A stretch of DNA of 64,000 bases from Spirochaetaceae bacterium (GTDB lineage Bacteria; Spirochaetota; Spirochaetia; DSM-27196; Alkalispirochaetaceae). Within the stretch, counting starts at the first letter, position 1. Each line of letters begins with the position of its first letter. Both the position numbers and the translations under genes were made by a program. The stretch lies in NCBI GenBank assembly GCA_007695175.1, contig REEH01000143.1, positions 69,152 through 133,151 of the forward strand, in the 5' to 3' direction. Below, one piece after another: positions 16,724-63,934 of the stretch. Under the pieces are notes generated by a model. It was not told where the DNA came from, did no database searches, and saw only the letters and a program-made list of their open reading frames with translations.

Positions 16724-16743
16724 GCCGCGGCCGCAGCCGCGGC
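16724..16743. other. Perfect GC hairpin GCCGCGGC-CGCA-GCCGCGGC abutting the mnhD-1 stop codon
   Basis: Read directly. No U-tract on either strand, so not called a terminator. Confidence 0.3.
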
Positions 16744-19629: not shown

Positions 19630-19636
19630 CGTTGTA

Positions 19637-20346: not shown

Positions 20347-20348
20347 CA

Positions 20349-20639: not shown

Positions 20640-20902
20640 AACGATACCATTTCCTCCGAGCGGTCCGGTCCGACGAGACGTACATAGGCGACAATCTCCG
20701 TGAAGGAGAGCAGCGCGTAAATCATCGCGACATCCATGTAGAAAACGTGATTGTAATGAACGGCGTAGAACGCCATCAGAAGCGTGACGTGGGCTGACAC
20801 CATATTAAGAGCAAGCAGTCTATCGTAGAGATTTGGGCCGATGATGAGGCGCACGATACTCATGGCGGTGAGGGCGTAGGTAACGTAAATAAGCACTATC
20901 AT
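20636..20902 (-). CDS. mnhF: Mrp antiporter subunit F, cluster 1
   Basis: 88 aa, 3 TM; N-terminus IGPNLYDRLLALN... is MrpF-like. Confidence 0.7.
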   Translation of the reverse strand: MIVLIYVTYALTAMSIVRLIIGPNLYDRLLALNMVSAHVTLLMAFYAVHYNHVFYMDVAMIYALLSFTEIVAYVRLVGPDRSEEMVSL

Positions 20903-21444: not shown

Positions 21445-21526
21445 TACGTACTCACTCAGCTATATCTTTATACCATGTTCCCTGCCGCATTGACAGACCT
21501 CCCGGTCGTCGGGAGATACTTATACC

Positions 21527-21973
21527 ATGCTGTTTACGGAACTGGACGAATCGCTGGTGGCGATAAATCTTCCCGCCAGGACACGGGACGAGGTGATAGA
21601 TCAGCTTCTCGGTATGCTGGACAGGACCGGAAAAGTAAGGGACCTCGATCTTGCCCGGACGGACATTGAGCGCAGCGAGCAGTTGATGGCATTCGGTATG
21701 CAGCACGGGATCGCGATTCCCCACGCCAAGACGGAGGCGGTGGAAGAACTGCTGGCTTGTTTTGCCGTTACCGAAAACCCGGTGGATTTCTCCGGCATTG
21801 ACGGCACACCGAGCCGGATATTCATCATGACGCTCTCACCGCCCGACCAGATTGGTCCCCATATCCGCTTCCTCAGCGAGATCGGTCGCCTTCTGAAGAA
21901 CCGGAAGGTGCGCAAGGCGATACTTGGCGCCGAGACTCCGGAACAGCTGCTGCGGATAATCAAGGGCCGGTGA
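21527..21973 (+). CDS. ptsN: PTS EIIA(Ntr)-like protein (PtsN family)
   Basis: 148 aa; HGIAIPHAKT with the canonical phospho-His context of EIIA-2; sits between the two Mrp clusters. Confidence 0.8.
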   Translation: MLFTELDESLVAINLPARTRDEVIDQLLGMLDRTGKVRDLDLARTDIERSEQLMAFGMQHGIAIPHAKTEAVEELLACFAVTENPVDFSGIDGTPSRIFIMTLSPPDQIGPHIRFLSEIGRLLKNRKVRKAILGAETPEQLLRIIKGR

Positions 21974-21975
21974 CG

Positions 21976-23454: not shown

Positions 23455-24968
23455 CGGCCCCTCCCGATGAGAGCGGGCCCGACGAAATCCGCCTGGTCGA
23501 CAAGCCCCTCCGCCGCTCTCAGGAGGAGGGACCGCACCTGCACGTCCCGGGTACCCGCCATTACGGCAGCAACCGCAAGAGCAAGGACAACAGCTGTCTG
23601 CAGGCGGGGTCGCAACGAGAGCGGATGTGGCGCCGGGAAAGAATCCGGTGGATCGCGCCGTGTAGCGATGAGAAAGAAGCGTCCGTAGTAGACGAGGGAA
23701 ATGACCGTACCCGCCCCGATCACGAGGACCGGAAGAAGGGCCTGCTGCGCCATGGCTACAAACCACTTGGATGCGAAGCCGCCCGTTGGAGGTATGCCGA
23801 TGATGGCCAGGGCGGCGAGAGAGAAGGCAATGATGCTGCCCGGTGCACGCCAGGCAATTCCGCCGAGATCCATAATCCTGGAGGACCGGGAAAGGTGTAT
23901 GAGGCGGTGTCCCGACCAGAACAGGGCGCTCTTCATCAAGGTGTGCATGCCGGTATGAAAGAGAGCGGCCGCGACCGCGTACACGGCGGCGCTCCCCCCG
24001 ATCCGTCCCGCCGCGGCGACGCCGAGCAGAATATACCCGACGTGAGCGATACTGGAAAACGCGAGCATCCGCACGAGGTTCCTCTCGATCATCGCCATCG
24101 AGTGACCTGTCAGAATGTTGACCATCCCCATGACGAGGAGTATGGAGTACACCCCCGGCAGCACAACCGGGGCCTGCAGGGGAAACCAGAGGAGACGCAG
24201 CAGCGCGTAGACATGGATTTTCAGACCGAAGGCGGAAAGGATTGCCGCCACGGTGGTGCCCGCGGCGTGATACGTCCGGGGCTGCCAGAAGTGCATCGGC
24301 ACCAGGCCAATCTTGATACCAAAGGAAACGATTATGGCAGCGGTTGCCATTCCGTGCAGGTGTGCGGGCAGGTCCGGGGCCGCCTGCGCAACAAGGGGCA
24401 TGGCGACGGTACCGGTGGCGACGTACAGAACGAGGACGGCGAAGAGCAGCAAGGCACCGCTTATCGTGGCCGCCATCAGGGCCACAAATCCGGCTACGGC
24501 ACTGCCGGGATGGCGCTTGCGTGCGATCAGCCCGATCGAGCAGACCGTCGCGAGCTCCACGAAGATAAACAGGTTGAAAAGATCCGCCGTGACGGTTATC
24601 CCCGACAGGGCCGCAAAGAAAAGGGCGATCAGCGCCGCCGATTTCCTCGCCCACTCGGAGCGATCCCCGCTCTCGATCCGGACAAGCGCCGAAGCAAGAT
24701 GGCCGATAGCCAGGAGCAGCAGAAAGAACGCGGAGAAACTATCTACCATCAACGAGATTCCGACCGGAGCGATCCACTCACCAACGGAATAGAGAAGGGC
24801 CGGGCCGGTCATGCCCCGGTACGCCGCGGCCACCAGCGTGGTGCTGTGAGCGGTTGCCACCAGCAGTGCCGCAGTGGACTTGAACGCCGGTCTGACCGTA
24901 TCCACCAGGGAGATGAGAAAGGCCCCGGCAACAGGTATCACCACAACCAGAACGGGGAGATGATTCAC
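23451..24968 (-). CDS. mnhD: Mrp antiporter subunit D (NuoM/N-like), cluster 2
   Basis: 505 aa polytopic; complex-I antiporter-like subunit pattern incl. GLVPMHFW... and HAG. Confidence 0.8.
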   Translation of the reverse strand: MNHLPVLVVVIPVAGAFLISLVDTVRPAFKSTAALLVATAHSTTLVAAAYRGMTGPALLYSVGEWIAPVGISLMVDSFSAFFLLLLAIGHLASALVRIESGDRSEWARKSAALIALFFAALSGITVTADLFNLFIFVELATVCSIGLIARKRHPGSAVAGFVALMAATISGALLLFAVLVLYVATGTVAMPLVAQAAPDLPAHLHGMATAAIIVSFGIKIGLVPMHFWQPRTYHAAGTTVAAILSAFGLKIHVYALLRLLWFPLQAPVVLPGVYSILLVMGMVNILTGHSMAMIERNLVRMLAFSSIAHVGYILLGVAAAGRIGGSAAVYAVAAALFHTGMHTLMKSALFWSGHRLIHLSRSSRIMDLGGIAWRAPGSIIAFSLAALAIIGIPPTGGFASKWFVAMAQQALLPVLVIGAGTVISLVYYGRFFLIATRRDPPDSFPAPHPLSLRPRLQTAVVLALAVAAVMAGTRDVQVRSLLLRAAEGLVDQADFVGPALIGRGR

Positions 24969-25315
24969 GAATCCTCCCTGGTGGCAATGAACAACCGGGC
25001 GATATCAGTTGTCCCGTAGTGACGATAAACGGCGACTGTCAGGGCAAGGGCAATCGCCAGAATGCCGGCTCCGATCACGATCGCTGTAAGAGCCAGCGCA
25101 TGGGGGAGCGGATCCACGAATCGGAGCGCCTCAAAACCTGCGATAGGAGCCGCTCCGCCGGGAACATAAGCGGCCGCCACAAGGGCCATCACAAAGGAAG
25201 AATCCATGATGCTGATGGAGATACAGATTTTGATCATATCCCGCTGGGTGAGCATGCCGTACAGGCCGATGGCGAAGACACCCGCGGCGGTCAGGTACGC
25301 AGCGGTCTGCATCAT
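24965..25315 (-). CDS. mnhC: Mrp antiporter subunit C, cluster 2
   Basis: 116 aa, 3 TM, NuoK/MrpC-like. Confidence 0.8.
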   Translation of the reverse strand: MMQTAAYLTAAGVFAIGLYGMLTQRDMIKICISISIMDSSFVMALVAAAYVPGGAAPIAGFEALRFVDPLPHALALTAIVIGAGILAIALALTVAVYRHYGTTDIARLFIATREDS

Positions 25316-26067
25316 CGGCGCTTCTCCGGAACGTTCTCCGCTTCGTGTCCCGCCAGGTGCACATAGATCGAACTGAGACCGGCGGCGACCTTCATACCGA
25401 CGAGAAGATTGAGCAGGGGAATTACCCCGCCCGAAGCCAGCGTACCCGCCGTGCCCCGGGGAAAGCCCGCCGCAACGTTGGCAAGGTACGCGGAACCCTG
25501 GAAAATCCCCACGAACCCGATTCCTACCAGGCCGATAGCCGCTCCGTACTCGGACAGGGCAAGAATCCTGTGCGGAATCACCTCTTCTCCGAAACGGTCT
25601 CCAAAAGCGACGTGGATCAGTATCACCAGGACGGCGAGACTGACACCGCCCTGGAAACCTCCGCCCGGCGACAGGTGTCCGTGAAAGATCACGAAGAGCG
25701 GAAAGATGAAAAAGAGCGGCAACAGCGCGGAGAGCTGCCGCCGTGATAGGAGACCCATCGTGCGGTTGGAGGGGGAACCGGGTTTTCCGAGAATGGCCGC
25801 CGCTACCGCCACGGACGCGAAGATCACCGTCGCCTCACCGAGCGTGTCGAAGGCCCGGTAATCCATGAGAATCGCCGTGACAACGTTGATGCTGCCTGTT
25901 TCGGCCACGCTCCGGGCGGTGTAGGGTTCCTCCATCTGTGTCGGTATCGTTTGTGCTCGGTGACGGCCCGCGTCCAGGAGAAGCACGACGAAACCGAGGG
26001 AGAGGAGCAGGCACAGAAAACCCGCGGTGAGGCGCGTCAGAAACACCCGGATCACCGGGCTCTCCAT
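25312..26067 (-). CDS. mnhB: Mrp antiporter subunit B (fused MrpB-signature + GGGFQGG domains), cluster 2
   Basis: NVVTAILMDYRAFDTLGEATVIF and LSPGGGFQGGV in one 251-aa protein. Confidence 0.8.
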   Translation of the reverse strand: MESPVIRVFLTRLTAGFLCLLLSLGFVVLLLDAGRHRAQTIPTQMEEPYTARSVAETGSINVVTAILMDYRAFDTLGEATVIFASVAVAAAILGKPGSPSNRTMGLLSRRQLSALLPLFFIFPLFVIFHGHLSPGGGFQGGVSLAVLVILIHVAFGDRFGEEVIPHRILALSEYGAAIGLVGIGFVGIFQGSAYLANVAAGFPRGTAGTLASGGVIPLLNLLVGMKVAAGLSSIYVHLAGHEAENVPEKRR

Positions 26068-49005: not shown

Positions 49006-50105
49006 CCGATATAACACTGCACGGTGTCTCCAAGACCTACGACATGGATCCAGTCGTCCGGGATCTCACGCTTCACGTGCCGGCGGGGACGATGTTCGGG
49101 CTTCTTGGACCGAGCGGATGCGGCAAGACAACGATACTGAGAATGATAGCCGGCCTGCTGGAACCCGATTGTGGCGATATCGCCTTTGATGGCGTCTCCG
49201 TGCTGTCGGTGCCTACGGAACGGCGCCGGATCGGGATGGTTTTCCAGCAGCACGTGCTCTTTCCGCATATGACCGTTGAGGAAAACGTTGGTTTCGGGTT
49301 GCGCATGCAGGGCGTGAAGCTGAGGCAGGCACGGCCCCGGATCGATGAGGTGCTGGAGCTTGTACAGCTGGGAGGGTACAACCGGCGCTTCCCCGGGCAG
49401 CTCTCCGGAGGGCAGCAGCAACGGGTTGCCCTCGCCCGTGCAGTCGTAACCGATCCGGTGGTACTGCTCCTGGACGAACCGCTTTCCAACCTTGATGCGC
49501 GCCTGAGGGACGACATGCGCGTGTTGATCCGGGATGTGCAGCGCCGCCTGGGTATCACCACGATATTCGTCACGCATGACCAGGCGGAGGCGATCGAGCT
49601 CTCGGACCGGATGGTGGTGCTATTCGAGGGCGAGGCGGCGCAGGAAGGGCCGCCGGAAGAGGTATTTGAGCGGCCGGTCAGCAGCCGGGTCGCGCGCTTT
49701 CTCGGTTCCACCAATCTTATTCCCGTGCAGGTTCCGGTATACCCTGAGGAAGGGTGGGTGGATGCGCCTTTCGGCAGGGTTGCCGTATGCTGCGGCGGAT
49801 ACGCCGGGGGATCGGTGCCCCGGGAGCTTCTGCTTTCCGTCCGTTGCGAGCACATATCCCTGCACGGGGAGGACTCTCCGGGAACGGTCGGATCGGACGG
49901 GATCAACACCTTCCACGGACGTGTGCTGGATTCCGTTTTCAAGGGGGGTCTGATCTTCTACCGGGTGGACCTGGAGGGCTTTCCCGTGGACGTGATCGAT
50001 CGGTCCGACCGCCAGTTTGTTCCGGGTGCCCGCGTCGTCGTCCAGTTACCCGAGCAGCACCTCTGGGTGATGCCTGCTGTGGAGTATGATGGCGGCCCCG
50101 TATAG
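49002..50105 (+). CDS. ABC transporter ATP-binding protein with C-terminal TOBE-like domain (PotA/FbpC/MalK type)
   Basis: Walker A GPSGCGKTT, signature LSGGQQQRVALARA, Walker B LLLDEP, H-loop; ATGA overlap. Confidence 0.85.
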   Translation: MTDITLHGVSKTYDMDPVVRDLTLHVPAGTMFGLLGPSGCGKTTILRMIAGLLEPDCGDIAFDGVSVLSVPTERRRIGMVFQQHVLFPHMTVEENVGFGLRMQGVKLRQARPRIDEVLELVQLGGYNRRFPGQLSGGQQQRVALARAVVTDPVVLLLDEPLSNLDARLRDDMRVLIRDVQRRLGITTIFVTHDQAEAIELSDRMVVLFEGEAAQEGPPEEVFERPVSSRVARFLGSTNLIPVQVPVYPEEGWVDAPFGRVAVCCGGYAGGSVPRELLLSVRCEHISLHGEDSPGTVGSDGINTFHGRVLDSVFKGGLIFYRVDLEGFPVDVIDRSDRQFVPGARVVVQLPEQHLWVMPAVEYDGGPV

Positions 50106-53319: not shown

Positions 53320-54087
53320 TCAAGCCAGAACTTTCTCGATGCTTTTCTTGGCCTTCCTGCGGTTTTTCCAGGATTCGACCGTCGATCCTGCTCCGGGGAA
53401 GGGCGTTTTTGAGGTCCATGGACCACCAAATACAAGGTCAAGGATGTGCAGCGACTGCTTGCCTCCCATCATCATGGACATGCGGCAAGCCGCGCAGTAG
53501 GTGACCATGTAGTCCGATTGCACCTCGCTGGTGCGGTTTTTCATTATCCGCTGAGCAAGATCAGGATTGGCGGGCAGCACCATTCCGCCAAAACCACAAC
53601 AGAGCGTTGTCATTTTGGTGTGCGCCGGTTCCTCGTACTTGTATCCCAGCTCGTCCATGATCCAGCGGATTCCCTCGTGGATATCCGGGCGATACCGGGT
53701 TGAGCAGGAGTCATGAATGGCAAAGGTGATGTCGCTATCCTTACCGATACCCCTGACCTCCTCCGGAAGGCCGATCTCGGGAAGAATCGTCCAGAGGGAC
53801 CGCACCTTCTGCTTGGGGCTGTACTCGGAGAGCGTGAGGAAACAGGACTGACACGCCACGATCACCTCTTCCGCGTCAAGCCGGTCGATCTCGGACTGTA
53901 CACCGGCGTACCGCTTCTTGAACTGGTCAATCTGCCCGAGAGCCTTGGTGGGTTTGCCGCAGCACTTGAGAATCGCTCCCGTTCCCGGCAGGTGGTTCTG
54001 CAGGTGCACCAGGGTCTTCTGTACAGCCATGGGATTGTATGAGGGCAGACTGCATCCCGGAAAGAAAACTCGTTTCGTGGTACTCAT
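53320..54087 (-). CDS. CCG-domain Fe-S protein (HdrB/GlpC-like)
   Basis: Two Cys-rich CCG repeats: PGCSLPSY...LKCCGKP and DSCSTRY...LCCGFGG. Confidence 0.7.
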   Translation of the reverse strand: MSTTKRVFFPGCSLPSYNPMAVQKTLVHLQNHLPGTGAILKCCGKPTKALGQIDQFKKRYAGVQSEIDRLDAEEVIVACQSCFLTLSEYSPKQKVRSLWTILPEIGLPEEVRGIGKDSDITFAIHDSCSTRYRPDIHEGIRWIMDELGYKYEEPAHTKMTTLCCGFGGMVLPANPDLAQRIMKNRTSEVQSDYMVTYCAACRMSMMMGGKQSLHILDLVFGGPWTSKTPFPGAGSTVESWKNRRKAKKSIEKVLA

Positions 54088-55898
54088 TTCCCACCTCCTG
54101 TGGGGGCTGTCGGCTGGTTGGTGCCGTTCCTGGCCGGGCGGGACGTATTGAAGAGGCGGGAAAAGCTCAGCAGCTGGTGCATGTCGATCACCTTGTGACC
54201 TTTCATCGGAGACTTGCCCCCGTTATTCATTACCATCTCCTTGCGCATGTTCATGAACGCATCCTGGAGTTTGAAATCCTTGGGACATACCAGCGTACAG
54301 GTACCGCACATGTTGCAGGAGTACGGAACGACCGGATCGACCTCGCCGGCGATAAGGGCATCCTTGAAGTATTTCTTGGGGCAATCCGGGGAGAACTCTT
54401 GGAGCATGAGACATTCCTTGACGCAGAGGCGGCATTCGCACTGGAGACAGCGCGACGCCTCCTCCACAGCCTGCTCCTCCGAGAAACCGAGATCAACCTC
54501 GGTGAAACTCCGCATGCGGGTGGCGATATCAAGCTTGCGCGTGTTGACGCGCTCCGGGTTTGTATCATCCGCGGGTATGGACGTTTCCAGATTAGTACGG
54601 TAGCCCCGTTCGTGGTCGCGCTGGATGCGCATGTCCTTGAGGTTCAGGTACCGGTGGAGCGATTCCGCCGCGATACGGCCTTCCGCCATAGCCTCAACCG
54701 CCATGAGGGAGATGCCCGTTCCGTCTCCGCAGGCAAACACTTTGCGGATGTTGGTCTGGAGTGTTTTCTCGTCCACGACAAAGCGTCCGCCGCGACCGAC
54801 CTCCACGGAGGTTGCAAAATCGCTGTCCACGCCCTGGCCGATCGCGAAAATCACCATATCCGTCTCTACGATCTCCTGGCAGCCCTCGTCGTAGGCGGGA
54901 TTGAAGCGCCCCTTGGGGTCAAAGACCTGGATACACTTCTTGAGGATGATCTGTTCAACCTTGTCGTCGCCCTTGATCGCTTCAGTTCCCCAGCTGTTGT
55001 GGAGGATCACGCCTTCCTCAAGCGCTTCCCGGACTTCCCAGTCGTGGGCGAACATCTCCTTGATATCTTTCTCAAGACAGACCAGGTGCACTTTTTCCGC
55101 ACCCAGCCGGACGGCGGTCCGGGCGGAGTCGAGCGCCACGTTTCCACCACCTATCACGGTGATCCGTTTGCCGAATCCCTTGTAGGTGCCGGTGAGACTG
55201 ACTTCCCGCAGGAAATCGACCGCCTGGATCGCTCCGGGCAGATCCTTGCCGTTTACCGGAAGCTTGAACCCTTTGTGGGCGCCTATAGCGATTACCACGC
55301 CATCGTAGGTGTCGACGATTTCCTGGAAAGGGATATCCTTGCCCACTTCAGTGGCCAGTTTGATCTTGATTCCCATACGGTGGAGCAAGCTGTATTCCGC
55401 ATTGATAATTTCCCGGGGGAGCCGATAGGAGGGGATCCCCACGTAAAGCATGCCCCCCACGACGGGGTGTTTCTCGTAAACTGTTACGCTGTAACCCTGG
55501 CGGCGTAAATCAAGCGCTGCCTGAGCACCGGCGGGACCGGAGCCGATGACGGCGATTTTTTCCGGGCGGTCCGGCTCCCGGGTTACGTCCCAGTCAAATT
55601 CATCGTCATAATTGTCCGCCGCAAAGCGCTTGAGGGAAGCGATGGACATGGCGTTGCCAACCTCGTTGCGCTTGCAGTGTTCCTCACAGGGGTGAGCACA
55701 AACTCTCCCCAGGGATTTAGGCAGAAAGAGTTTCTGCCGGATTGTCTGTATCGCTTCCTTGTACTTGCCTTCCGCAATGAGGTTTACGTACCCCTTGACG
55801 TCCGTGTGCATGGGACACGCCGTGTGACAGTACGGGGGCGCATCACCCATACAATCCTCAATGACCGGAAGCATCTCCCTGACTGTATCAGCCTTCAT
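54084..55898 (-). CDS. FAD/NAD(P)-dependent oxidoreductase, GltD-like (glutamate synthase small-subunit fold) with C-terminal 2x[4Fe-4S] ferredoxin domain
   Basis: N-terminal Cys cluster, VIGSGPAGAQAA and VIGGGNVALD Rossmann motifs, C-terminal CLQCECRLCVKEC...CNMCGTCTLVCP. ATG 55898 after GGAGG (the ORF-track start is a TTG 12 nt upstream). Confidence 0.75.
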   Translation of the reverse strand: MKADTVREMLPVIEDCMGDAPPYCHTACPMHTDVKGYVNLIAEGKYKEAIQTIRQKLFLPKSLGRVCAHPCEEHCKRNEVGNAMSIASLKRFAADNYDDEFDWDVTREPDRPEKIAVIGSGPAGAQAALDLRRQGYSVTVYEKHPVVGGMLYVGIPSYRLPREIINAEYSLLHRMGIKIKLATEVGKDIPFQEIVDTYDGVVIAIGAHKGFKLPVNGKDLPGAIQAVDFLREVSLTGTYKGFGKRITVIGGGNVALDSARTAVRLGAEKVHLVCLEKDIKEMFAHDWEVREALEEGVILHNSWGTEAIKGDDKVEQIILKKCIQVFDPKGRFNPAYDEGCQEIVETDMVIFAIGQGVDSDFATSVEVGRGGRFVVDEKTLQTNIRKVFACGDGTGISLMAVEAMAEGRIAAESLHRYLNLKDMRIQRDHERGYRTNLETSIPADDTNPERVNTRKLDIATRMRSFTEVDLGFSEEQAVEEASRCLQCECRLCVKECLMLQEFSPDCPKKYFKDALIAGEVDPVVPYSCNMCGTCTLVCPKDFKLQDAFMNMRKEMVMNNGGKSPMKGHKVIDMHQLLSFSRLFNTSRPARNGTNQPTAPTGGGK

Positions 55899-56172
55899 GA
55901 AAACCTCCAAAAATATTCTGTCCCTCGGGACGTTACCGACCGGTACGTGCCGAAGTATGTCTTCTACGAAGCGCGGTGCATAAACGCGGTGAAAAATCCA
56001 ACTCGATATCGCTTCGTATTATGTGATTATCGTAACTTAAAATACGACTCGGGTCAATTATAACGCGGAAAAATCATGACGATTCGTACAATCGAGCGAT
56101 ATAGAAGGATATTTCTTTCGTAATTTGTCCGGTTATCTTATCATGAGTTGTTTATTAATAGAATTCAATCAC

Positions 56173-56209
56173 ATAAACGCGGACCGGAAGAGTCCTTTCG
56201 GAGTCCGCG
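56173..56209 (-). terminator. Candidate terminator after the OMP-like gene: 7-8-bp stem CGCGGAC/GUCCGCG with internal UCC-GAAA-GGA, then UUUAU
   Basis: Read directly in the minus sense, just below the stop at 56216; long loop and short U-run make it weak. Confidence 0.35.
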
Positions 56210-56215
56210 GCGGCA

Positions 56216-57526
56216 CTAGTAGAGGTAGCGGAATCCCAGTGCGAGGGTGGCCGACTCCGCACGGCCCCAGCCGTATACGCTGGTATCATCTCCGGCCTGG
56301 ACCGACACGAAGGCGAGCATGTGGAATCCCTGGAAAACGTTCCACGCTACGCCGCCGGTTATCTCGGCGGATGCATCGATCGGGGACACCAGGCCGCGAC
56401 CGATCACCTGCACCGTCCGACCCGCCCCCCATACCAGCTCCGGGTGCAGTTGCACCGCGTATCCGGCTTCAGGATTCCGGAGGTCGTTCCAGGCGCCGGC
56501 GGGGGTAATCAGCGCTTCCAGCCGCGCCGCCAGGGTATGGTCCCGGCCGATCGGGAAGAGATAAAACGCGCCGAGGCTGAGCAGGGAGTAGTCTTCCAGC
56601 ACGTGTCCAATGCGCCCGCGGCCGGGTGGGGGACCATCCTCCGGCAGATGCAGGGCAGCGGCACCGTAGAGATCCGCCCCGAGGCTTCCCTGCAGCGCGA
56701 TCGCGGTACGGTGCACCCCGGCGGAACCGTCATAGAGCCAGGAGGGTTCCACCGTGAGAGGGCCCGCGGAACTGTGCAGGCGCAATCCCGCTCGGGAGTC
56801 CGCCGCCGGCGCTACCGCGGTCGCCCCGTTGCCGGTGGTGCCGGTGGAGGGGCTGCCGTCCGGATCGTCCGGGTAGTCCTGGGCGGCATTCGCTGTCCCG
56901 CCCAGGCTCAGTTCGGGCAGGGGCGGCAAGGCGACCGCCTCCAGATACCCCAGCGCACCAACGGGGAAATACAGCGCGAGAAGCCACGTCGTCTCATCCC
57001 GCACATCCTCGGACCGGGTGAAGTCCGCGGTGCTCCGCCCGTCGGCGCCAAAGATCAGGTCCGCCGCGTTGAAAAGGGACCCCAATCCCCAACTGAGACG
57101 ATCCCTCCCGGTGGTGACGCGCATCGAGTATTCTTCGGTCAGGGGGAAACGGAACCGGATGCTCGCCCGGGGGACTTCAAGGAATGCCGGGGAGGACGCG
57201 CCGGAGGAGTCCTCCAGCAGCGTCAGGCGCAGCTGGAGCCGGGACTGGACGTTTCGGTCTCCGGCGGAGCGAAAGTCCACCGTTCCCCGGGTCAGACCGG
57301 TGAGACCCAGTTCCTCACCGGTCCAGACCGTAGCGGCGAAACTCTCGATCTCCGTCTGGACGCGCGTCTCCGCGCCGAGAACTCCCGCCCCGCCAAGGAG
57401 CAGTACCATTGCCGCCGCGGTCGTCGCGCCTCTCAAGGCGCCACGCACGACGCCACGGCCGGCCCCACGGCCGGCGCCACGCCCCGTCTCGAACGATGCC
57501 CGCTTCCTCTGCTCCAGCGTTACCAT
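56216..57526 (-). CDS. Putative outer-membrane beta-barrel protein with Arg/Gly-rich N-terminal region
   Basis: Ends ...LALGFRYLY (aromatic C-terminus typical of OMPs); alternating beta-strand-like pattern; N-terminus MVTLEQRKRASFETGRGAGRGAGRGVVRGALRG before the hydrophobic MVLLLGGAGVLGA. ATG 57526 overlaps the upstream gene by 7 nt. Confidence 0.5.
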   Translation of the reverse strand: MVTLEQRKRASFETGRGAGRGAGRGVVRGALRGATTAAAMVLLLGGAGVLGAETRVQTEIESFAATVWTGEELGLTGLTRGTVDFRSAGDRNVQSRLQLRLTLLEDSSGASSPAFLEVPRASIRFRFPLTEEYSMRVTTGRDRLSWGLGSLFNAADLIFGADGRSTADFTRSEDVRDETTWLLALYFPVGALGYLEAVALPPLPELSLGGTANAAQDYPDDPDGSPSTGTTGNGATAVAPAADSRAGLRLHSSAGPLTVEPSWLYDGSAGVHRTAIALQGSLGADLYGAAALHLPEDGPPPGRGRIGHVLEDYSLLSLGAFYLFPIGRDHTLAARLEALITPAGAWNDLRNPEAGYAVQLHPELVWGAGRTVQVIGRGLVSPIDASAEITGGVAWNVFQGFHMLAFVSVQAGDDTSVYGWGRAESATLALGFRYLY

Positions 57527-58317
57527 GTCAGCGCATCCAGGGAGAAGATATTCCGGGGCAGGCTTACCCCGAGGCGTGCGGACTCGATAATCATTTCGGT
57601 ACCGCTGGAGCGGCGAGTCTCGTCCACGACTCGCATGCGCGACGGAAAGTGGTATCCGTCCCGGCGCATCGTCTCGAGAACGTGGACAGTTTTGAGCAGC
57701 CGTCCGCTCCGGGCAAACTGCTCCGCCCGACGCAGAACAAACTCCTCCCGGTCGACCCAGTAAACCTGGCGGGGGTAGGCTACGCTGGTGGTACGCGCCA
57801 CCAGCTCCACCTTGTACGAGGGATATCCGTCGACCTCATCCTCACCGATCAGGGTGAACCGGTAGTCTGACGCGAGACCCCGTCCGCCGGTCATGTCCTC
57901 GTAGGAGATGTCCGATCCGAGCAGGTTGTCCCGCAGGGCGGCGCCCTGGAGCCTGATTGTTTCGCGCGCGTCCGGGTAATAGAGGTAGAGGCTGTCGTCA
58001 CGACGCAGCACCCGCTGCCCCTCCTCCGCACGGGAGGTGAACTCTACCAGGAAGCGGTCCGCTCCCTCGCTGTGAGCGATGTAGGTACTGGAGCGGTCGC
58101 CGAAACGATCGCTGATTACCAGGCGCCCCTCGATGATCGCCGTTGAGTGCGTCTGGTTCGCCTCCATGCGCTCGATGATTTCATCGGCGGTGAGCGCCTC
58201 CGCCCGGGGGGGTGTCGCGAACAGGAAGCTCGCCGGAAGCAGCCATGCAGATATCAGTATACGCATACCGGCGCGGGTAATATTTCGACCGATTCGTTTC
58301 TTCTCAGAATTATGCAT
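57520..58317 (-). CDS. LolA-like periplasmic protein (outer-membrane lipoprotein-sorting protein family)
   Basis: Signal peptide MRILISAWLLPASFLFA; ~230-aa soluble domain of the LolA-like family usually found next to MacB/FtsX-type ABC permeases. Confidence 0.6.
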   Translation of the reverse strand: MHNSEKKRIGRNITRAGMRILISAWLLPASFLFATPPRAEALTADEIIERMEANQTHSTAIIEGRLVISDRFGDRSSTYIAHSEGADRFLVEFTSRAEEGQRVLRRDDSLYLYYPDARETIRLQGAALRDNLLGSDISYEDMTGGRGLASDYRFTLIGEDEVDGYPSYKVELVARTTSVAYPRQVYWVDREEFVLRRAEQFARSGRLLKTVHVLETMRRDGYHFPSRMRVVDETRRSSGTEMIIESARLGVSLPRNIFSLDALTW

Positions 58318-58368
58318 CTTTAACCTGTCCTTTCGCTTTCCGTTTTAAGCATCACCGCATCGGCGGGA

Positions 58369-59598
58369 TCACTCCGCCCGCAGCGCCTCCACCGGCCGCA
58401 GCTTTGCCGCCCGTCGCGCCGAGGGGTAGGTGGATACCATTGCCACGGCCAGGCCGAAGAAGAACACCAGCACGGTGGATCGCACATTCAGCACGGGGTA
58501 GAGCACGCTGGAGAGATCCATCTCCACCATATCCATGGCGGAACCGAAGTCGATGCCGATCCTGGAGAGTGGAATCGTAATCGCCACGCCGATCACCACT
58601 CCGACAAAGGATCCGATCGCCCCGAGGTACGCGGACTCCAGGAAGAAGAGGCGCACCAGCTCCCCACCGTGCATCCCCATCGCCGCGAGGGTACCGATCT
58701 CCCGGGTCCGCTCGTGGATGATCATCATGGTGGTGCTGATGATCACCGTGCTGGCCAGCAGGAAGAAGATCAGTGCGACGATGTTGTACACGACGCCGGC
58801 TGTCCGCAGGTAGGAGTACCCACCGCTGATCCGCGTCCAGGGAACGACGCTGAGCTCCGTCCTCCCTGATTCTTCAAGGAACGACCGCACACCATCGGCG
58901 AACTCCACGGTGTCACCACCGACACTCTTCAAGAGAATCTCGCTCGCCGCACCGTCCATCCGCATGTACCGGTCCGCGTTCTCGATCGGAAGGATATACC
59001 CGCTGCTGTTGAGCTGCGGTACGGGGAAGTCAGCCAGGCCTACCACGTCCAGGGTGAACGCGTTGGACCCGCGCCGGCGGGTCTGGATCAGAAACGTGAC
59101 GATATCCCCCGTTCCGATGTCCAGATCCGAGGCCAGACCGCGTCCGAGGATCGCCTCGTTGGTCCCGGATCGTGGAAGGCGCCCCGCCGCGATGACTCGC
59201 TCGAGATCCTGGTATTCCTGCTCCCGTTCCAGATCGAGGCCCAGCCCCAGAGTAGCAAACTGCTGTTCACCCCGGAACGCTGCTCCGAGAACGCGAATGC
59301 GGGGACTCACCGTTCTCACCTCAGGGTGCGCGCGGAGCCGGTCCACCAGGTCCCGGTAGTCCCCCACCACGTACTGAACGGGATTCAGGTACTCGTACCG
59401 GTCAAATTCGGCGTGGCGCAGGCGCACTTCCCCGGCGTCCCAGTCCCAGGAGTTGGTCTGGATGTTCGTTTTAATCCCCTCAAAGAGGGAAAAGAAGATG
59501 GTGATCGAAGTGGCCGCTACCGCCAGGGCAAGGATCGAGAGCAGACTGCGTCGCTTGTTTCTGAATATGTTCCGCAAAGCGATTCCTGACAGTCTCAT
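58369..59598 (-). CDS. ABC transporter permease, FtsX/MacB-like (4 TM + large periplasmic domain), copy 1
   Basis: MRLSGIALRNIFRNKRRSLLSILALAVAATSITIF...; C-terminal FtsX domain; ATGA overlap with the upstream stop. Confidence 0.8.
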   Translation of the reverse strand: MRLSGIALRNIFRNKRRSLLSILALAVAATSITIFFSLFEGIKTNIQTNSWDWDAGEVRLRHAEFDRYEYLNPVQYVVGDYRDLVDRLRAHPEVRTVSPRIRVLGAAFRGEQQFATLGLGLDLEREQEYQDLERVIAAGRLPRSGTNEAILGRGLASDLDIGTGDIVTFLIQTRRRGSNAFTLDVVGLADFPVPQLNSSGYILPIENADRYMRMDGAASEILLKSVGGDTVEFADGVRSFLEESGRTELSVVPWTRISGGYSYLRTAGVVYNIVALIFFLLASTVIISTTMMIIHERTREIGTLAAMGMHGGELVRLFFLESAYLGAIGSFVGVVIGVAITIPLSRIGIDFGSAMDMVEMDLSSVLYPVLNVRSTVLVFFFGLAVAMVSTYPSARRAAKLRPVEALRAE

Positions 59599-60866
59599 AC
59601 ATGCCTCAGACAATCGGTAACGCTCTTCTTGAGAATCCGCCGGGTGGGAAAGATCGCCACCACCCCGGCGACCAGGACGGCGAAAACCGTGGCGCTCACC
59701 ATCGTTCCATAATTCCATACGCCGTACAGAACGCTGTCAAAGCGGTAGCCCGCAAAATCGATCTCCGACATGAGCCTGGAGTAATCGACTCCGTAGGTGA
59801 CCAGCAGCCCCGTGAAGACGCTGCCCAGAGCAAGACCGCCGATCGCGCCGAGAACGCCGATTCCCGCCGCTTCCAGGGAGAAGAGCAGGCGGATCTCCCT
59901 GTTATGAAGACCCAGGGACCGCAGCATCCCGATCTCCCGTTCGCGCTCAAGGACCGACATGAGCATCGTGTTGGAGACCCCCACGATCGCGATAATCGCC
60001 AGGAGAAAGAGCAGCAGGTTGGTAAACCCCTCCTCCATCTCCATCATCTCCGTGAACTCCTCGGTCATATCCGCGTAGGAAAGGGCAACGACAGGGCCGG
60101 CGCCGACCGCTTCGAGAACCCGCCGCGCCGGGGCAGGGTCCGCCGTGCCCGGTATCGCTTCCGGAAGCTTCAGGTGAATCGAGGTAACCGCCCCCTTCAT
60201 CTCCAGGTAGAGATCCGCCACGTCCAGCGGCAGGTGTACCTTGTTGCGGTCCACGTAGGGATTGGGAGACTCGTAGATTCCTGCCACCTCCAGTTCCAGG
60301 AACTGCCGGTACCCGTCGCGAGTCCGGGTGGTGACGCTCACGGGATACCCCACCTCCGCACCGAGCTGCTCCGCGAGCCACCGCCCCAGGACGATCTCCT
60401 CCCGGCCCGATTCCAGCCAGCGGCCCTCCACGATCGCCTCCCGCAGACGGAAAACCCGGGAATCAAGCTCCGGGTCCAGACCGGCAAAAACCATCGGAAC
60501 AGACCCATCCTCGGGGAAGGGATCGTAGTGCACGATCAGGTCTCCCCGGAACGTCGTGCGCGGAGCCGCGGGTATACCGGCCTCCTCGAGTACCCGCAGA
60601 AGCGCCTCCGGGTCCTCCACGAGACGGTCCAGGAGGTACCGGTGCCGCTCATCCCAGTATTCCGGCGCGGTAATCGCGGCGTTGCCGATCTCGAAATCCA
60701 CCAGGTTCCGGTCGATTTCGCTGATGAAACCCACCAGGATCGAGTCCATGCTCGTATAGATCGAGATACCTACCGCCATGGCGAGGGCGGTAACAACCGT
60801 CCGACGTCTGTGACGAGTCAGGTTCCTGAAGGCCAGGACGAAGAAGAATCGCGCTCGTCGTACCAT
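59595..60866 (-). CDS. ABC transporter permease, FtsX/MacB-like, copy 2
   Basis: MVRRARFFFVLAFRNLTRHRRRTVVTALAMAVGISIY...; TGATG overlap with the ATPase stop. Confidence 0.8.
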   Translation of the reverse strand: MVRRARFFFVLAFRNLTRHRRRTVVTALAMAVGISIYTSMDSILVGFISEIDRNLVDFEIGNAAITAPEYWDERHRYLLDRLVEDPEALLRVLEEAGIPAAPRTTFRGDLIVHYDPFPEDGSVPMVFAGLDPELDSRVFRLREAIVEGRWLESGREEIVLGRWLAEQLGAEVGYPVSVTTRTRDGYRQFLELEVAGIYESPNPYVDRNKVHLPLDVADLYLEMKGAVTSIHLKLPEAIPGTADPAPARRVLEAVGAGPVVALSYADMTEEFTEMMEMEEGFTNLLLFLLAIIAIVGVSNTMLMSVLEREREIGMLRSLGLHNREIRLLFSLEAAGIGVLGAIGGLALGSVFTGLLVTYGVDYSRLMSEIDFAGYRFDSVLYGVWNYGTMVSATVFAVLVAGVVAIFPTRRILKKSVTDCLRHV

Positions 60867-61549
60867 CACACGCTCCGTTTCTCGTCGCTCTCGATCTCTC
60901 CGTCGTGCAGCCGGCAGAGGCGCCCGGCGTAGTCCATCACCATCGGATCGTGGGTTGAGAAGACAAAGGTGGTTCCCCGGTCATGGTTGATGCGCTTCAT
61001 GAGCTTCAGAAGAGCCTCGCCTGTTCCGGAGTCGAGATTAGCCGTGGGCTCGTCGGCGAGCACGATCAGGGGTTCCTTGATAAGAGCCCGGGCGACGGCC
61101 ACCCGTTGCTGCTGACCACCGGAGAGTTTGGACGGCCGCCGGTTCTCCATTCCTTCCAGTCCGACTTCGTGGAGCAGGGTCATTGTCCGTTCACGGATCT
61201 CTCCCCGGGGCAGTTCAAGCATCTCCAGGACGATCGCTACGTTCTCGTAGGCCGAAAGTACCGGGATGAGGTTGAAACTCTGAAAGACAAAACCGATCTT
61301 GTGGCGCCGGATCTCCACCAGCTCCTTTGCCTTTCGCCGCGCGAGTTCTTCACCATCGATCGAGATTTCTCCGCCGTCGATACTGTCGATGCACCCGATC
61401 AGGTTGAGCAGGGTAGTCTTTCCAGATCCCGATGGACCTGCTATGGAGAGAAACTCGCCCCGCTCGATTTCCATGGAGACACCCCGCAGAGCGTGCACCT
61501 TGATGTCCCCGTCGATGTAGTCTTTCTTCACGTCCTTGATCGTGATCAT
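60866..61549 (-). CDS. ABC transporter ATP-binding protein (LolD/MacB-ATPase/YtrE-like)
   Basis: Walker A GPSGSGKTT, LSGGQQQRVAVARAL, Walker B VLADEP, H-loop FSTHD. Confidence 0.85.
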   Translation of the reverse strand: MITIKDVKKDYIDGDIKVHALRGVSMEIERGEFLSIAGPSGSGKTTLLNLIGCIDSIDGGEISIDGEELARRKAKELVEIRRHKIGFVFQSFNLIPVLSAYENVAIVLEMLELPRGEIRERTMTLLHEVGLEGMENRRPSKLSGGQQQRVAVARALIKEPLIVLADEPTANLDSGTGEALLKLMKRINHDRGTTFVFSTHDPMVMDYAGRLCRLHDGEIESDEKRSV

Positions 61550-62700
61550 CGAGCGTTCTCCTCCCCACCGGCGGGACTGTCGCCGGTCGGACCTCGCTGG
61601 TCGTCCTCCCGATTCTGCATCGCCGCAAGCTTGTTCTGCAGCGCTACCAGTCCCACCGGGTGTCCCAGGTTCATCTGCTCCGCCGCGGAGGATGGTACCA
61701 GGACAACCGAGCCTTTGCTCTGACGCAGCGCGTCGTAGACCATGTTCATCGCCCGCAGCTGAAACGCCTGGGGGTTGTCCCGATAGTACTCGTCGGCGCG
61801 GCGCATCTTTTCCGCCAGCTGGATCTCCGTGTCGCCGAGAATGATCCGCGCCCGGTGCTCCCGGTCCGCCTGGGCGTGGCGGCTCATGGCGTCCTCCAGT
61901 TCCCCGGGAATCACGATGTCCGTAAACTCCACCGACAGAACGGTGATACCCCAGGGATTGGTCTTTGCGTCGAGAATCTTCTGCAGCTTCGCCCCCACCT
62001 GGTCGCGTTCGCTCAGGAGCTCCTCCAGATTATGCGAACCGATCGCCTCACGCAGGGCGGTCTGGGCGGAAAGCGTCACCGCCTCGAGGAAATCCTGCAC
62101 CTCCAGGACCGCCTTCTGGGCGTCCCAGATCATCCAGAAACAGATAGCATCCACGTGGACGGGAACGTTGTCCCGGCTCAGGGTGCGTTCCGCGCTGAAG
62201 TCGGTCACGCGAATACGCGTATCCACCCGGGCGGCAATGCGGTCGATGAAGGGGGGGAGCAGGAAGAGACCCGCCCCACGCACCCTGTGGAAGCGCCCCA
62301 GGCGCAGGATGACTGCCCGGTCCCAGTGGAGGAGCAGGTTCACCATCGCCGCCGGGAGAAGCGAAAGTGCGGGTACGGCGTACAGGATGGCCCGATCGGA
62401 CCCGCTCACGCTGTAAAGGACTGCCCAGCTCGCCATAAGCGCGATCACCAGCATCCCCCAGGTGGGAAGGGCAACCAGGAGGAGCGCCCCCAGGATCACC
62501 GCGTAAACGACTCCCTGAAACTCCTCGCCGGAGAGCGCGAAACCTGAAAGGTGCATCGCCCCGAACGCACCGGCACACACCACCGCCAGAAGCAGAAAGG
62601 AAAAAGTGGAAAACCGGAAGTCCCGCGGGATCACCCGGCGGGGAACGTTTTTTATCCGCGACACCCGGGGGTTGCGAAAGAGTCCCTGTAAACCCGTCAT
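61546..62700 (-). CDS. SPFH/band-7 (stomatin-prohibitin) family membrane protein
   Basis: Start MTGLQGLFRN... (ATG 62700). N-terminal TM segments. SPFH core ...VDAICFWMIWDAQKAV...LREAIGSHNLEELLSERDQVG... Coiled C-terminus. ATGA overlap with the ABC ATPase start. Confidence 0.75.
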   Translation of the reverse strand: MTGLQGLFRNPRVSRIKNVPRRVIPRDFRFSTFSFLLLAVVCAGAFGAMHLSGFALSGEEFQGVVYAVILGALLLVALPTWGMLVIALMASWAVLYSVSGSDRAILYAVPALSLLPAAMVNLLLHWDRAVILRLGRFHRVRGAGLFLLPPFIDRIAARVDTRIRVTDFSAERTLSRDNVPVHVDAICFWMIWDAQKAVLEVQDFLEAVTLSAQTALREAIGSHNLEELLSERDQVGAKLQKILDAKTNPWGITVLSVEFTDIVIPGELEDAMSRHAQADREHRARIILGDTEIQLAEKMRRADEYYRDNPQAFQLRAMNMVYDALRQSKGSVVLVPSSAAEQMNLGHPVGLVALQNKLAAMQNREDDQRGPTGDSPAGGEENAR

Positions 62701-62713
62701 AAAGACCTCCTGA

Positions 62714-63100
62714 TCATTCTCGCTCTCCCATTTCCCGGAGCTGGGCGATAATCTCCTCCAGGGAAAACCCGTAGGAACCGGCCTGGACGAGGGTCGACCG
62801 GCATAGCTCGGAGAGAATACGCTCCCGTTCCACCTCGGAAAATGAAATCTCCCGATCCGAGATGAACGTGCCGGTACCCTGCTGGGTGTTGACGATGCCC
62901 CGGATCTCCAGCTGGTTGTACGCCTTCGCCACTGTGTTGGGGTTGATCTGCAAGTCCACCGCAAGGCTTCGCACCGTAGGCAGCTGGTCGCCGGCGGCCA
63001 GGCGATCGCCGGCGATCGCCATCTCCACCTGGAGAATTATCTGCTTGTAATAGGGTATCCCGCTGTTGTTGTCGATTGTAAACCGGATTTCCCGCGCCAC
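62714..63100 (-). CDS. GntR-family transcriptional regulator, short YtrA-like subfamily
   Basis: 128 aa; N-terminal wHTH AAGDQLPTVRSLAVDLQINPNTVAKAYNQLEIRGIV; short C-terminal domain typical of YtrA. GTG start after GAGGAA. Confidence 0.8.
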   Translation of the reverse strand: MAREIRFTIDNNSGIPYYKQIILQVEMAIAGDRLAAGDQLPTVRSLAVDLQINPNTVAKAYNQLEIRGIVNTQQGTGTFISDREISFSEVERERILSELCRSTLVQAGSYGFSLEEIIAQLREMGERE

Positions 63101-63112
63101 GTCCTGTTCCTC

Positions 63113-63148
63113 TGTACTATTGTACTACATAAACAGTACAATAGTACA
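63113..63148. promoter_or_regulatory. Perfect inverted repeat TGTACTATTGTACT-N8-AGTACAATAGTACA (four GTAC cores), candidate operator of the YtrA-like repressor
   Basis: Read directly, 13 nt upstream of the gntR start. Overlaps a plausible -10 (TACTAT) with TTGCGT ~15 nt further upstream (minus sense). Confidence 0.55.
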
Positions 63149-63178
63149 GGAAAACTTTTTTACGCAATGGGTGCAGCG

Positions 63179-63934
63179 CTACAACTCAGCCACGATACAG
63201 AGGAGAAAAGAATCGTCTTCATCGAAAGGACTGCCCTCGTACCCGCCGTAGGTCCTGATACCGGTGAAGCCCGCCGCCCGAGCGGCCGCAACCAGCTCGT
63301 CCCGACGCAGCGTGAGGAGCGGCGTCGTGGCACTGACCGACTCCTCTCCCTCCCGTTCCAGTTCAACGTGAAAGACCGTCGTCCCCGGCGTACTCGAAGG
63401 CCGGTATTCGCGCCGCATGGTAATACCCGTCCGCTCCACGGGCGGTAACGGACGGGCTCTCTCCTCTCCACCCTCCGGGGGTGCAAACCGGGCGAAGTTG
63501 ATCACCTGAACAACCAGCCTGCCCGTTCCCGACGATCCGGGGGAGGCCAGCACTCGAGCCGCTTCCCGGAAAAAGATATCAACCGCTCCGCGATCGCTCA
63601 GGTGGGGCAGGGAGTTTCCGATGCAGAACATGCCGCCCCAGGGAATGGAAACGGCAGCGGTTATGGCCGGGATATCCTCCAGGGAACCAACCAGAAAGCG
63701 ACCATCCCGTCCGCAGCATCGGGCACGAGCGATCATCGCCTGGTCGGCATCGAATCCGACAACCGACATGCCCCGGGAGGCGAGTGCGGCTGTGTAATTA
63801 CCGGTTCCGCAGGCGGCATCGACGATAACCCCCGACACACCGCCAAAGGTTTCCTCCAGGAAATCGACGGTTTCATTTTCCGCCGGAAACAGCGTGTCGT
63901 AATACTGGGCCAGAATACTGTAGAAACTGCTCAT
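63179..63934 (-). CDS. Class I SAM-dependent methyltransferase
   Basis: VIVDAACGTGNYTAALA (motif I), VGFDADQAM (motif II-like). Confidence 0.7.
   Translation of the reverse strand: MSSFYSILAQYYDTLFPAENETVDFLEETFGGVSGVIVDAACGTGNYTAALASRGMSVVGFDADQAMIARARCCGRDGRFLVGSLEDIPAITAAVSIPWGGMFCIGNSLPHLSDRGAVDIFFREAARVLASPGSSGTGRLVVQVINFARFAPPEGGEERARPLPPVERTGITMRREYRPSSTPGTTVFHVELEREGEESVSATTPLLTLRRDELVAAARAAGFTGIRTYGGYEGSPFDEDDSFLLCIVAEL

Follow-up and report, generated by a model that had tools for sequence, protein, structure and literature searches.

The 64,000-nucleotide stretch of Spirochaetaceae bacterium DNA analysed here (assembly GCA_007695175.1, contig REEH01000143.1, positions 69,152 to 133,151; hereafter, the window) contains a run of seven minus-strand genes, from 63100 to 56216, that brings together a GntR-family repressor, an SPFH (stomatin-type) protein, an ATP-binding cassette (ABC) transporter, a LolA-like periplasmic protein and a predicted outer-membrane beta-barrel. 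The features of this locus, in window coordinates, are as follows.

63119..63142: operator-like palindrome, ATTGTACT-N8-AGTACAAT, upstream of gntR
62714..63100, minus strand: gntR, YtrA-type short GntR protein, 128 amino acids, GTG start
61546..62700, minus strand: SPFH/stomatin-type ("slipin") gene, 384 amino acids
60866..61549, minus strand: ABC ATPase gene, 227 amino acids
59595..60866, minus strand: FtsX1, type VII ABC permease 1, MacB_PCD and FtsX domains (Pfam)
58369..59598, minus strand: FtsX2, type VII ABC permease 2, MacB_PCD and FtsX domains (Pfam)
57520..58317, minus strand: LolA-like gene (PF17131, Pfam), alternative start at 58266
56216..57526, minus strand: predicted outer-membrane beta-barrel gene (AlphaFold2 model), family unclassified, 436 amino acids
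56181..56195, minus strand: weak terminator-like hairpin, 21 nt past the barrel stop, from a consensus scan only

All seven open reading frames (ORFs) are present in the ORF list of the window, and the junctions, read directly from the sequence, show that a first-pass annotation of this DNA, which had described seven minus-strand genes chained by overlapping start and stop codons, was accurate in every detail. A 13-nt gap separates the gntR stop (62714) from the ATG of the SPFH gene (62700), which is preceded by AGGAGG. The SPFH and ATPase genes then overlap by 4 nt (ATGA, 61549..61546), the ATPase and FtsX1 genes by 1 nt (TGATG, at 60866, with an alternative GTG start at 60869), the two permease genes by another ATGA (59598..59595), and the LolA-like and barrel genes by 7 nt (ATGGTGA, 57526..57520). 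FtsX2 is followed by a gap of 51 nt, or of 102 nt if the LolA-like gene starts at the ATG at 58266, as it does in the NCBI gene model (248 amino acids).

The GntR protein carries an N-terminal winged helix-turn-helix domain (PF00392, E 5.1e-16, residues 18-80; Pfam), and its gene has a GAGGA ribosome-binding site ahead of the GTG at 63100. Its closest relatives in the PDB are short GntR proteins of 121-134 amino acids that align nearly end to end (3by6, 4r1h, 4ham, 3neu and 2du9/2ek5), and NCBIfam yielded partial matches to Rv1152 and PmtR, both under cutoff. At 128 amino acids, the protein has the length of a YtrA-type repressor (about 120-135 amino acids in total, with a C-terminal domain of about 50), and the assignment to this type made at first pass is supported both by that length and by the solved relatives 3by6, 4r1h and 2du9, which are full-length short GntR proteins. 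The gntR gene comes first in a cluster of ABC-transporter genes, behind a conserved palindrome that the GntR protein is predicted to bind.

This palindrome, in the 78-nt intergenic stretch ahead of gntR, is perfect, with 16-bp arms (63111..63150). Its core, which an inverted-repeat scan also found, ends about 18 nt ahead of the gntR GTG and, with up to 2 mismatches allowed, has no second occurrence in the window (0.01 expected). A relaxed version of the palindrome occurs upstream of gntR in 31 of the 31 related loci that have enough upstream sequence, in nearly all of them 16-47 nt upstream of the gene, and the strict version is found in 23 loci, exactly once per locus and solely upstream of gntR. 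This comparative evidence argues strongly that the seven genes form a single operon headed by an autoregulating GntR protein that would act through the palindrome. A further sequence considered as a second operator, TTGTAC-N10-GTACAA at 49360-49381, was rejected; it lies inside overlapping long ORFs, has a spacer of 10 rather than 8 nt and is probably a chance occurrence.

The ATPase (ABC_tran, E 4e-34; Pfam) is LolD/DevA/FtsE-like, and its translation retains every one of the Walker A, Q-loop, signature, Walker B and H-switch motifs in intact form. Among NCBIfam models, DarD, DevA, FtsE and LolD score between 204 and 220 bits, all under their cutoffs; the LolD equivalog, TIGR02211, reaches 204.1 bits against a cutoff of 307.75, and DarD and DevA, which are also under cutoff, score higher. 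FtsX1 is LolC/LolF-like, its PDB matches being LolF (5e-14), LolC (2e-11), LolE (1e-10) and MacB (9e-9), such that LolC and LolE are favoured about equally. FtsX2 is LolE/LolF-like and favours LolE over LolC (LolF, 7e-20; LolE, 4e-16; YtrF, 8e-11; LolC, 6e-7). The lolCE equivalog, TIGR02212, gives 85.5 and 117.5 bits for the two permeases (the latter for FtsX2) against a cutoff of 362.45, and both permeases likewise fall far under the cutoffs of the NCBIfam exception models for LolE and LolC. The layout of two distinct FtsX/MacB_PCD genes and one ABC_tran gene is that of LolCDE. Because the nearest solved relatives of the permeases are Lol proteins while the Lol equivalog models all fail their cutoffs by a wide margin, the pump is Lol-like in design yet not canonical Lol, and we rejected a canonical Lol pathway on these scores. 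Neither a MacA/HlyD-type adaptor nor a TolC-type outer-membrane factor was found by Pfam among the seven products or the flanking genes. We therefore also rejected a MacAB-TolC tripartite pump, which lacks both of its partners here and whose permease is a poorer match than those of Lol; the transporter, initially described as MacB-type, is better regarded as a Lol-like one, in which the ATPase is a protein of its own and the two permeases, which differ from each other, have LolF, LolC and LolE as their closest solved relatives.

The LolA-like protein matches PF17131 over nearly the whole profile (positions 2-183 of 184; E 1e-47; 162.6 bits against a cutoff of 30), and its relatives in the PDB are 9tp6, 4z48, 3buu and 3bk5. 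The LolA-like fold proposed for it is thus supported both by Pfam and by solved structures (3buu, 4z48, 3bk5). The LolA-family model itself gave no match in Pfam or NCBIfam; apart from PF17131, there was only a weak match to MucB_RseB. In the alignment of homologues, the signal peptide is of type I (ending ...RAEA/LTADE), and a lipobox is absent. PF17131 has been renamed TP_0789-like in a newer Pfam release. A homology search with the LolA-like profile returned close relatives only and did not reach Treponema, so the link to TP_0789 is one of Pfam name, and the full-text literature on TP0789 and on PF17131 held nothing beyond incidental mention.

The last gene of the operon, which had been suspected of encoding a beta-barrel, has a product with no sequence match in Pfam, NCBIfam or the PDB, but AlphaFold2 (AF2) predicts for it a barrel of 18 strands (predicted local distance difference test [pLDDT] score 81.6, predicted template modelling score 0.73). 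Other features expected of an outer-membrane barrel are present: a signal peptide (...VLGA/ETRV), antiparallel strands throughout and a C-terminal aromatic residue (GFRYLY). An alignment of 30 homologues shows a conserved MV start, which fixes the 7-nt overlap with the LolA-like gene, a conserved signal peptide and a conserved C-terminus, GFRYxF/Y, that resembles the beta-signal of outer-membrane proteins. Conservation is highest in the motif GRDRLSWGxGxLFNAADLxFG, found between strands 5 and 6, a position that would, by analogy, correspond to the constriction loop L3 of classical porins. Strands 7 and 8 are joined by a long, variable loop of low complexity, as expected of a surface loop. The protein is of monomer type, and its best structural matches include the uptake channels Occ/OprD, maltoporin and chitoporin; by sequence it belongs to none of the OprD/Occ, AlgE, MOMP, maltoporin and Wzi families. 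A profile search of 1.84 billion representative sequences found 327 relatives, of which all the named ones are from Spirochaetota, and plasmids gave no match at all. With no Pfam model, a few hundred representatives and no description that we could find in the full-text literature, this is a new outer-membrane protein family. Its N-terminus in the window (57410-57526) has a Gly/Arg-rich stretch, GRGAGRGAGRGVVRGALRG, ahead of the hydrophobic core of the signal peptide, with no Tat motif; homologues differ widely in how long this n-region is, up to about 95 amino acids in one of them (P0019).

The SPFH protein (Band_7, PF01145, E 3.7e-34; Pfam; 384 amino acids in the NCBI gene model also) is of stomatin type, matching the stomatin PH1511 (3e-42), human stomatin and QmcA (7e-32), and Foldseek returned stomatin and QmcA as the top matches to its model. 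The AF2 model has four N-terminal transmembrane (TM) helices (residues 32-51, 58-77, 81-99 and 104-119, pLDDT >90), then the SPFH domain (120-265) and the long helix (266-305) that stomatins (slipins) carry as a coiled coil. No Pfam family matches the N-terminal 130 amino acids, even at E <= 10, and the 950 plasmid-borne SPFH matches all start at or after residue 89; the three extra helices therefore mark this subfamily. Across 42 homologues, Lys+Arg average 6.6 in the N-terminus and 4.5 after TM4, with almost none in loops 1 and 3, which, under the positive-inside rule, would place the N-terminus and the SPFH domain alike in the cytoplasm. So placed, the SPFH domain could not bridge the periplasm. 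Residues 1-31 (62607-62700) contain a motif, R-I-K-N-x-P ... D-F-x-F-S, in which N18 and D27 are invariant in the 42 sequences and which could be a docking site. An NfeD-family partner gene was not found by Pfam in the cluster or its flanks, and six of six SPFH homologues looked up, at 47-66% identity, reside in this same gene cluster.

We scanned species-representative genomes with a profile of the barrel and obtained 46 loci, all from Spirochaetota (Spirochaetaceae metagenome-assembled genomes [MAGs], Marispirochaeta, Sphaerochaeta and Pleomorphochaeta), to which we added loci of Spirochaeta africana, Marispirochaeta aestuarii and Pleomorphochaeta and of three more distant SPFH homologues; all loci were scored against the seven window proteins. 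The order GntR-SPFH-ABC-FtsX-FtsX-LolA-like-barrel recurs; in 33 of 41 informative loci, the transporter genes have SPFH as their immediate upstream neighbour, and the synteny on which the first-pass interpretation depended is thereby established. The junctions are conserved as well. The LolA-like and barrel genes adjoin in 45 of 46 loci, with the same 7-nt overlap at 33 of the 45 junctions; the GntR and SPFH genes overlap in 22 of 29 loci (median -4 nt); and the SPFH and ATPase genes overlap or lie within 20 nt of each other in 20 of 23. The seven-gene arrangement is more than chance. No SPFH-type VII ABC operon (SPFH with ABC, FtsX or GntR) was found in the full-text literature, in agreement with the earlier remark that this pairing is uncharacterised.

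Every scored locus with a GntR gene also has an SPFH gene (29 of 29), one further locus has SPFH at a contig edge, and eight have neither. Four of these eight carry instead a TetR gene, overlapping or abutting that of the ATPase, and another, from Ca. Marispirochaeta associata, has a divergent activator; their positions, in the coordinates of each locus, are as follows.

L007, 5041-5724: TetR gene
L011, 4918-5607: TetR gene
L012, 5240-5962: TetR gene
L047, 4735-5469: TetR gene
L042, 4162-5826, minus strand: divergent sigma-54 activator with a GAF domain

The remaining three have no obvious regulator (L046), a permuted order (L009) or the carrier and barrel only (L023). Neighbour-joining trees of the barrel, FtsX2 and the ATPase, which are rough and without support values, place the TetR-headed loci as a single clade that nests among the GntR-SPFH clusters of their own haloalkaliphilic lineage, and L042 as sister to a GntR-SPFH cluster of the same genome (L035). 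Because SPFH-less paralogues with other regulators nest in this way within GntR-SPFH clades, GntR and SPFH appear to have been replaced together at least twice with the five core genes intact. By this comparison, SPFH is accessory to the core, travelling with the repressor rather than forming a constant part of the machine. The proposal that it scaffolds the pump is not supported by this comparison, in which SPFH co-varies with gntR and not with the transporter core, and SPFH-less paralogues make use of TetR or a sigma-54 activator.

Some genomes carry two or three copies of the core, among them Ca. Marispirochaeta associata (L035 and L042) and MAG B1Sed10_113R1 (L009, L018 and L047). A Pleomorphochaeta/Sphaerochaeta-like subgroup has a third FtsX/MacB_PCD permease gene between the SPFH and ATPase genes (L003, 4800-6053, and L031-L033, L040, L041 and L049), and in one locus an extra permease gene stands between carrier and barrel (L053, 13231-14481). 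The core design extends beyond spirochaetes, as the megaplasmid pPP1 of Persicobacter psychrovividus (Bacteroidota; L055, 4162-9792) encodes a TetR protein, a secreted beta-rich protein of 381 amino acids, ABC, FtsX, FtsX and a PF17131 protein 33% identical to that of the window, with no SPFH. The 381-amino-acid protein has no detectable relation to the spirochaete barrel (hhalign probability 0.1) and may be an analogous outer-membrane partner.

These data are most consistent with a single operon of free-living spirochaetes, repressed by its own YtrA-type GntR protein, that specifies an accessory, inducible, Lol-like export route across the envelope without an adaptor or TolC, and we consider this reading probable. 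It is built on the gene order and overlaps, the domain identities, the predicted barrel fold, the conserved operator and the synteny with its modular heads; from these we infer the direction of transport, the hand-over between components, the contacts between proteins and the nature of the cargo, as well as the topology and role of SPFH. An ATPase dimer and the two non-identical type VII permeases would form a LolCDE-like extractor that would act by mechanotransmission on the outer leaflet of the inner membrane, pulling out a cargo that is hydrophobic or amphipathic. The soluble LolA-like protein would ferry this cargo through the periplasm, and the translationally coupled 18-strand barrel would serve as a dedicated acceptor or exit in the outer membrane, with no adaptor, TolC or LolB being encoded here. 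The repressor would sit on the conserved palindrome over its own promoter region, such that the route is made only upon induction. The four-TM stomatin-type protein would belong to the same evolutionary unit as the repressor, with its SPFH domain on the cytoplasmic face, and most likely would oligomerise into a cap like those of stomatin and QmcA, so as to confine or tune the transporter, or its lipid patch, upon induction; it could act either as such a cap or as a sensing partner of the repressor. The initial picture of an envelope-spanning export apparatus is kept, as a proposal, with respect to the inner-membrane pump, the LolA-like carrier and the barrel, and is revised with respect to the type of pump, which is Lol-like, and to the scaffolding role of SPFH, which our data do not support.

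There is precedent for several of these steps. The type VII ABC system YbbAP-TesA extracts hydrophobic compounds from the inner membrane (PMC12646458), and an inner-membrane pump is combined with a LolA-superfamily protein and a dedicated outer-membrane protein in AmeABCD (PMC6394551) and in the model of Borrelia BBJ23-29 (PMC13078400). Cages that enclose client membrane proteins are seen for stomatin, QmcA and HflK/C (PDB 9zd2, 8z5g and 7wi3, among our search matches).

Several observations weigh against this reading. A consensus scan found no promoter upstream of gntR, and TTGCGT-18-TATTGT, read by hand in that region, matches the consensus at just 3 of 6 positions (-35) and 4 of 6 and is not claimed as a promoter. 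The hairpin at 56181..56195, a weak call, is a possible operon end. SPFH is missing from 8 of 41 related loci and so is not required by the core, and a cytoplasmic SPFH cap would need to leave room for the nucleotide-binding domains. Judged from its model, the barrel is as similar to diffusion porins as to the export barrels AlgE and Wzi, and the cluster encodes no cargo gene.

With regard to cargo, we prefer a lipid or hydrophobic small molecule to lipoproteins, because the operon is under a repressor, some paralogues are headed by TetR, copy number varies and the Lol equivalog models all fall short of their cutoffs. TetR proteins usually sense small hydrophobic ligands, and the TetR-headed paralogues accordingly point to a small hydrophobic inducer or cargo, while genomes with several copies argue against a housekeeping role. 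Alternatively, the same core machine could carry lipoproteins, as a second, regulated Lol pathway in which the barrel replaces LolB or is a translocon for surface lipoproteins. The permeases are indeed nearest to LolF, LolE and LolC, the carrier belongs to the LolA superfamily, spirochaetes display surface lipoproteins in abundance, and lipoproteins are proposed as one candidate cargo of the analogous BBJ23-29 cluster of Borrelia in a paper that also points out the lack of LolB in spirochaetes (PMC13078400). However, the LolC/E and LolD equivalog scores are far under their cutoffs (85.5 and 117.5 versus 362; 204 versus 307.75), the carrier is a PF17131 protein and not a member of the LolA family, the cluster contains no lipoprotein gene, the operon stands behind a repressor and its paralogues behind TetR, and copy number differs among genomes. 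We regard lipoprotein cargo as unlikely, though as the most credible of the alternatives. An inward, Mla-like route, in which barrel, soluble lipid carrier and ABC transporter would retrieve or import a lipid or hydrophobic nutrient, has some appeal, since OmpC/MlaA-MlaC-MlaFEDB likewise comprises a porin-like barrel, a soluble carrier and an ABC transporter, and since the structural matches of the barrel include the Occ/OprD, maltoporin and chitoporin uptake channels. Pfam found no MCE or MlaD-like protein in the cluster, however, and the characterised type VII ABC systems all act outwards or mechanically from the periplasmic face, none of them importing (PMC5985334, PMC12646458), so that we think import very improbable.

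Another possibility concerns the SPFH protein and is compatible with the export route proposed for the five core genes. Primarily a part of the regulatory head and not a pump scaffold, the four-TM stomatin could sense the state of the membrane or the cargo load and either control the repressor, for instance through its sequestration at the membrane, or act as a gate on the ATPase. The perfect co-occurrence of GntR and SPFH, the overlap of their genes, their joint replacement by other regulators in nested SPFH-less paralogues, the absence of a normal effector domain from YtrA-type repressors and the conserved cytoplasmic RIKN...DF.FS motif, as a possible docking site, all fit this idea. Simple inheritance of the head as a block would, on the other hand, account equally well for the co-occurrence, the neighbour-joining trees are rough, and we know of no precedent for an SPFH protein that controls a GntR regulator; we judge a regulatory role to be unlikely, about as probable as lipoprotein cargo or slightly less. 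More doubtful still is a specific form of it, in which the stomatin and the YtrA-type repressor would constitute a new membrane-state sensing pair: at the cytoplasmic face, an SPFH oligomer would read lipid packing or the build-up of cargo and control the repressor, by sequestration or release, or the ATPase, and thereby switch on a dedicated Lol-like route that ends in a new, spirochaete-specific outer-membrane barrel. If this were true, the stomatin would be the first SPFH protein known to partner in transcriptional signalling, and the first in bacteria to have a defined ABC-transporter client. Finally, SPFH and porin-like proteins are common, neither has been tied to ABC transporters by demonstration here, and the SPFH gene, the barrel gene or both could be independent housekeeping genes that happen to stand beside an ABC transporter. 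This we find scarcely credible, as gene order and overlaps are kept in several genera at identities of the seventh product down to 26-30%, the SPFH subfamily with its unique four-TM N-terminus was found in this cluster only (in the six homologues looked up), and the barrel family is almost invariably adjacent to the LolA-like gene.

The export route that we favour resembles, and differs from, several known systems. With LolCDE-LolA(-LolB), of which LolDF is a homodimeric variant, it shares an ATPase in a gene of its own, two different four-TM permeases with MacB-type periplasmic domains, whose best solved relatives are LolF, LolE and LolC, and a soluble LolA-superfamily carrier encoded alongside. 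Unlike LolCDE-LolA, it has equivalog scores far under cutoff and a carrier of PF17131 rather than LolA; its outer-membrane partner is a predicted integral 18-strand barrel, whereas that of Lol is the lipoprotein LolB; and it is repressor-controlled, multi-copy and headed by SPFH. With MacAB-TolC it shares the MacB_PCD and FtsX domains of its permeases, which place them in the type VII ABC superfamily, but it has no MacA/HlyD adaptor or TolC duct, its ATPase is unfused, and MacB is a weaker match than the Lol permeases.

Among spirochaetes, a similar design is that of BBJ23-BBJ29 on plasmid lp38 of Borrelia, for which a computational description (Biosci Rep 2026; PMC13078400) gives a type VII ABC transporter (BBJ26/27), a LolA-like protein (BBJ28) and an adjoining barrel, and proposes the export of non-polar ligands to the outer membrane. 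That cluster differs from ours in its Omp85-type barrel, homodimeric permease and two TPR chaperones, and in having no GntR or SPFH; conversely, no Omp85-type barrel or TPR chaperone accompanies the ABC and LolA-like genes of the window. Because the LolA-like protein of the window matches no Borrelia plasmid at E <= 1e-3 and the barrel matches no plasmid, the relation is one of design and not of close homology, and homology to the BBJ cluster was rejected. AmeABCD and the Pseudomonas DUF1302/DUF1329 clusters with resistance-nodulation-division (RND) pumps, which have genetic links to the ability to grow on, or to tolerate, hydrophobic compounds such as monoterpenes, fatty esters and Tween (PMC6394551; bioRxiv 10.1101/2020.07.04.188060), likewise combine an inner-membrane pump, a periplasmic LolA-superfamily protein and a dedicated outer-membrane protein. 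They are found in Proteobacteria, however, with an RND rather than an ABC pump, with DUF1302/DUF1329 partners and without SPFH.

The regulatory head has its own counterparts. Bacillus subtilis ytrABCDEF and other YtrA-type operons such as PmtR/Pmt also have a short YtrA-type repressor first in an ABC operon, with a palindromic operator of which the palindrome upstream of gntR would be the counterpart; YtrF (9o9x), an FtsX/MacB-type permease, is among the PDB matches of the window permeases, and PmtR is one of the partial NCBIfam matches of the GntR protein. The hosts of these systems are nonetheless monoderm, and they have no LolA-like protein, barrel or SPFH; their inducers (cell-wall antibiotics and phenol-soluble modulins) are not transferable to the window system. 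The SPFH protein resembles those of stomatin/QmcA-NfeD and HflK/C-FtsH in having a stomatin-type SPFH domain followed by a long helix, and such proteins cap client membrane proteins, but it has four N-terminal TM helices rather than a single anchor or hairpin and no NfeD gene beside it, and, in contrast to HflK/C, its genomic partners are a GntR protein and a type VII ABC transporter and not a protease.

The components of the operon are thus familiar, and what is new is their combination, the outer-membrane family and the GntR-SPFH head. To our knowledge, how spirochaetes deliver lipids and lipoproteins to their unusual outer membrane has yet to be settled, and the operon represents a complete, self-contained candidate route (extractor, carrier and barrel) for outer-membrane delivery in LolB-less spirochaetes, which occurs in the cultivable S. 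africana, M. aestuarii and Pleomorphochaeta. We know of few clients of bacterial SPFH proteins other than FtsH, and the operon offers a testable one for a bacterial stomatin. The operator provides a handle for finding the inducer, and the modular heads (GntR with SPFH, TetR, or a sigma-54 activator) provide a natural comparison of what SPFH adds.

The genes on either side of the cluster vary among genera, none being kept beside it in other genera, which argues that the seven genes are a self-contained unit. Downstream (53320-55910, minus strand) are a Fer4_20/Pyr_redox_2 oxidoreductase, like a glutamate-synthase small subunit, and then a CCG-domain protein, and upstream (63179-63934, minus strand) is a class-I methyltransferase. 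An anti-phage defence system was considered and rejected, as PADLOC gave just generic matches to an ABC ATPase and LolE TM segments. No Rfam family reached its gathering score anywhere in the window. Elsewhere, the region from 16001 to 26000 stands out from the rest of the window by a lower G+C content (0.54-0.57 between 16 and 22 kb) and by an AT skew that is strongly positive, reaching 0.27.

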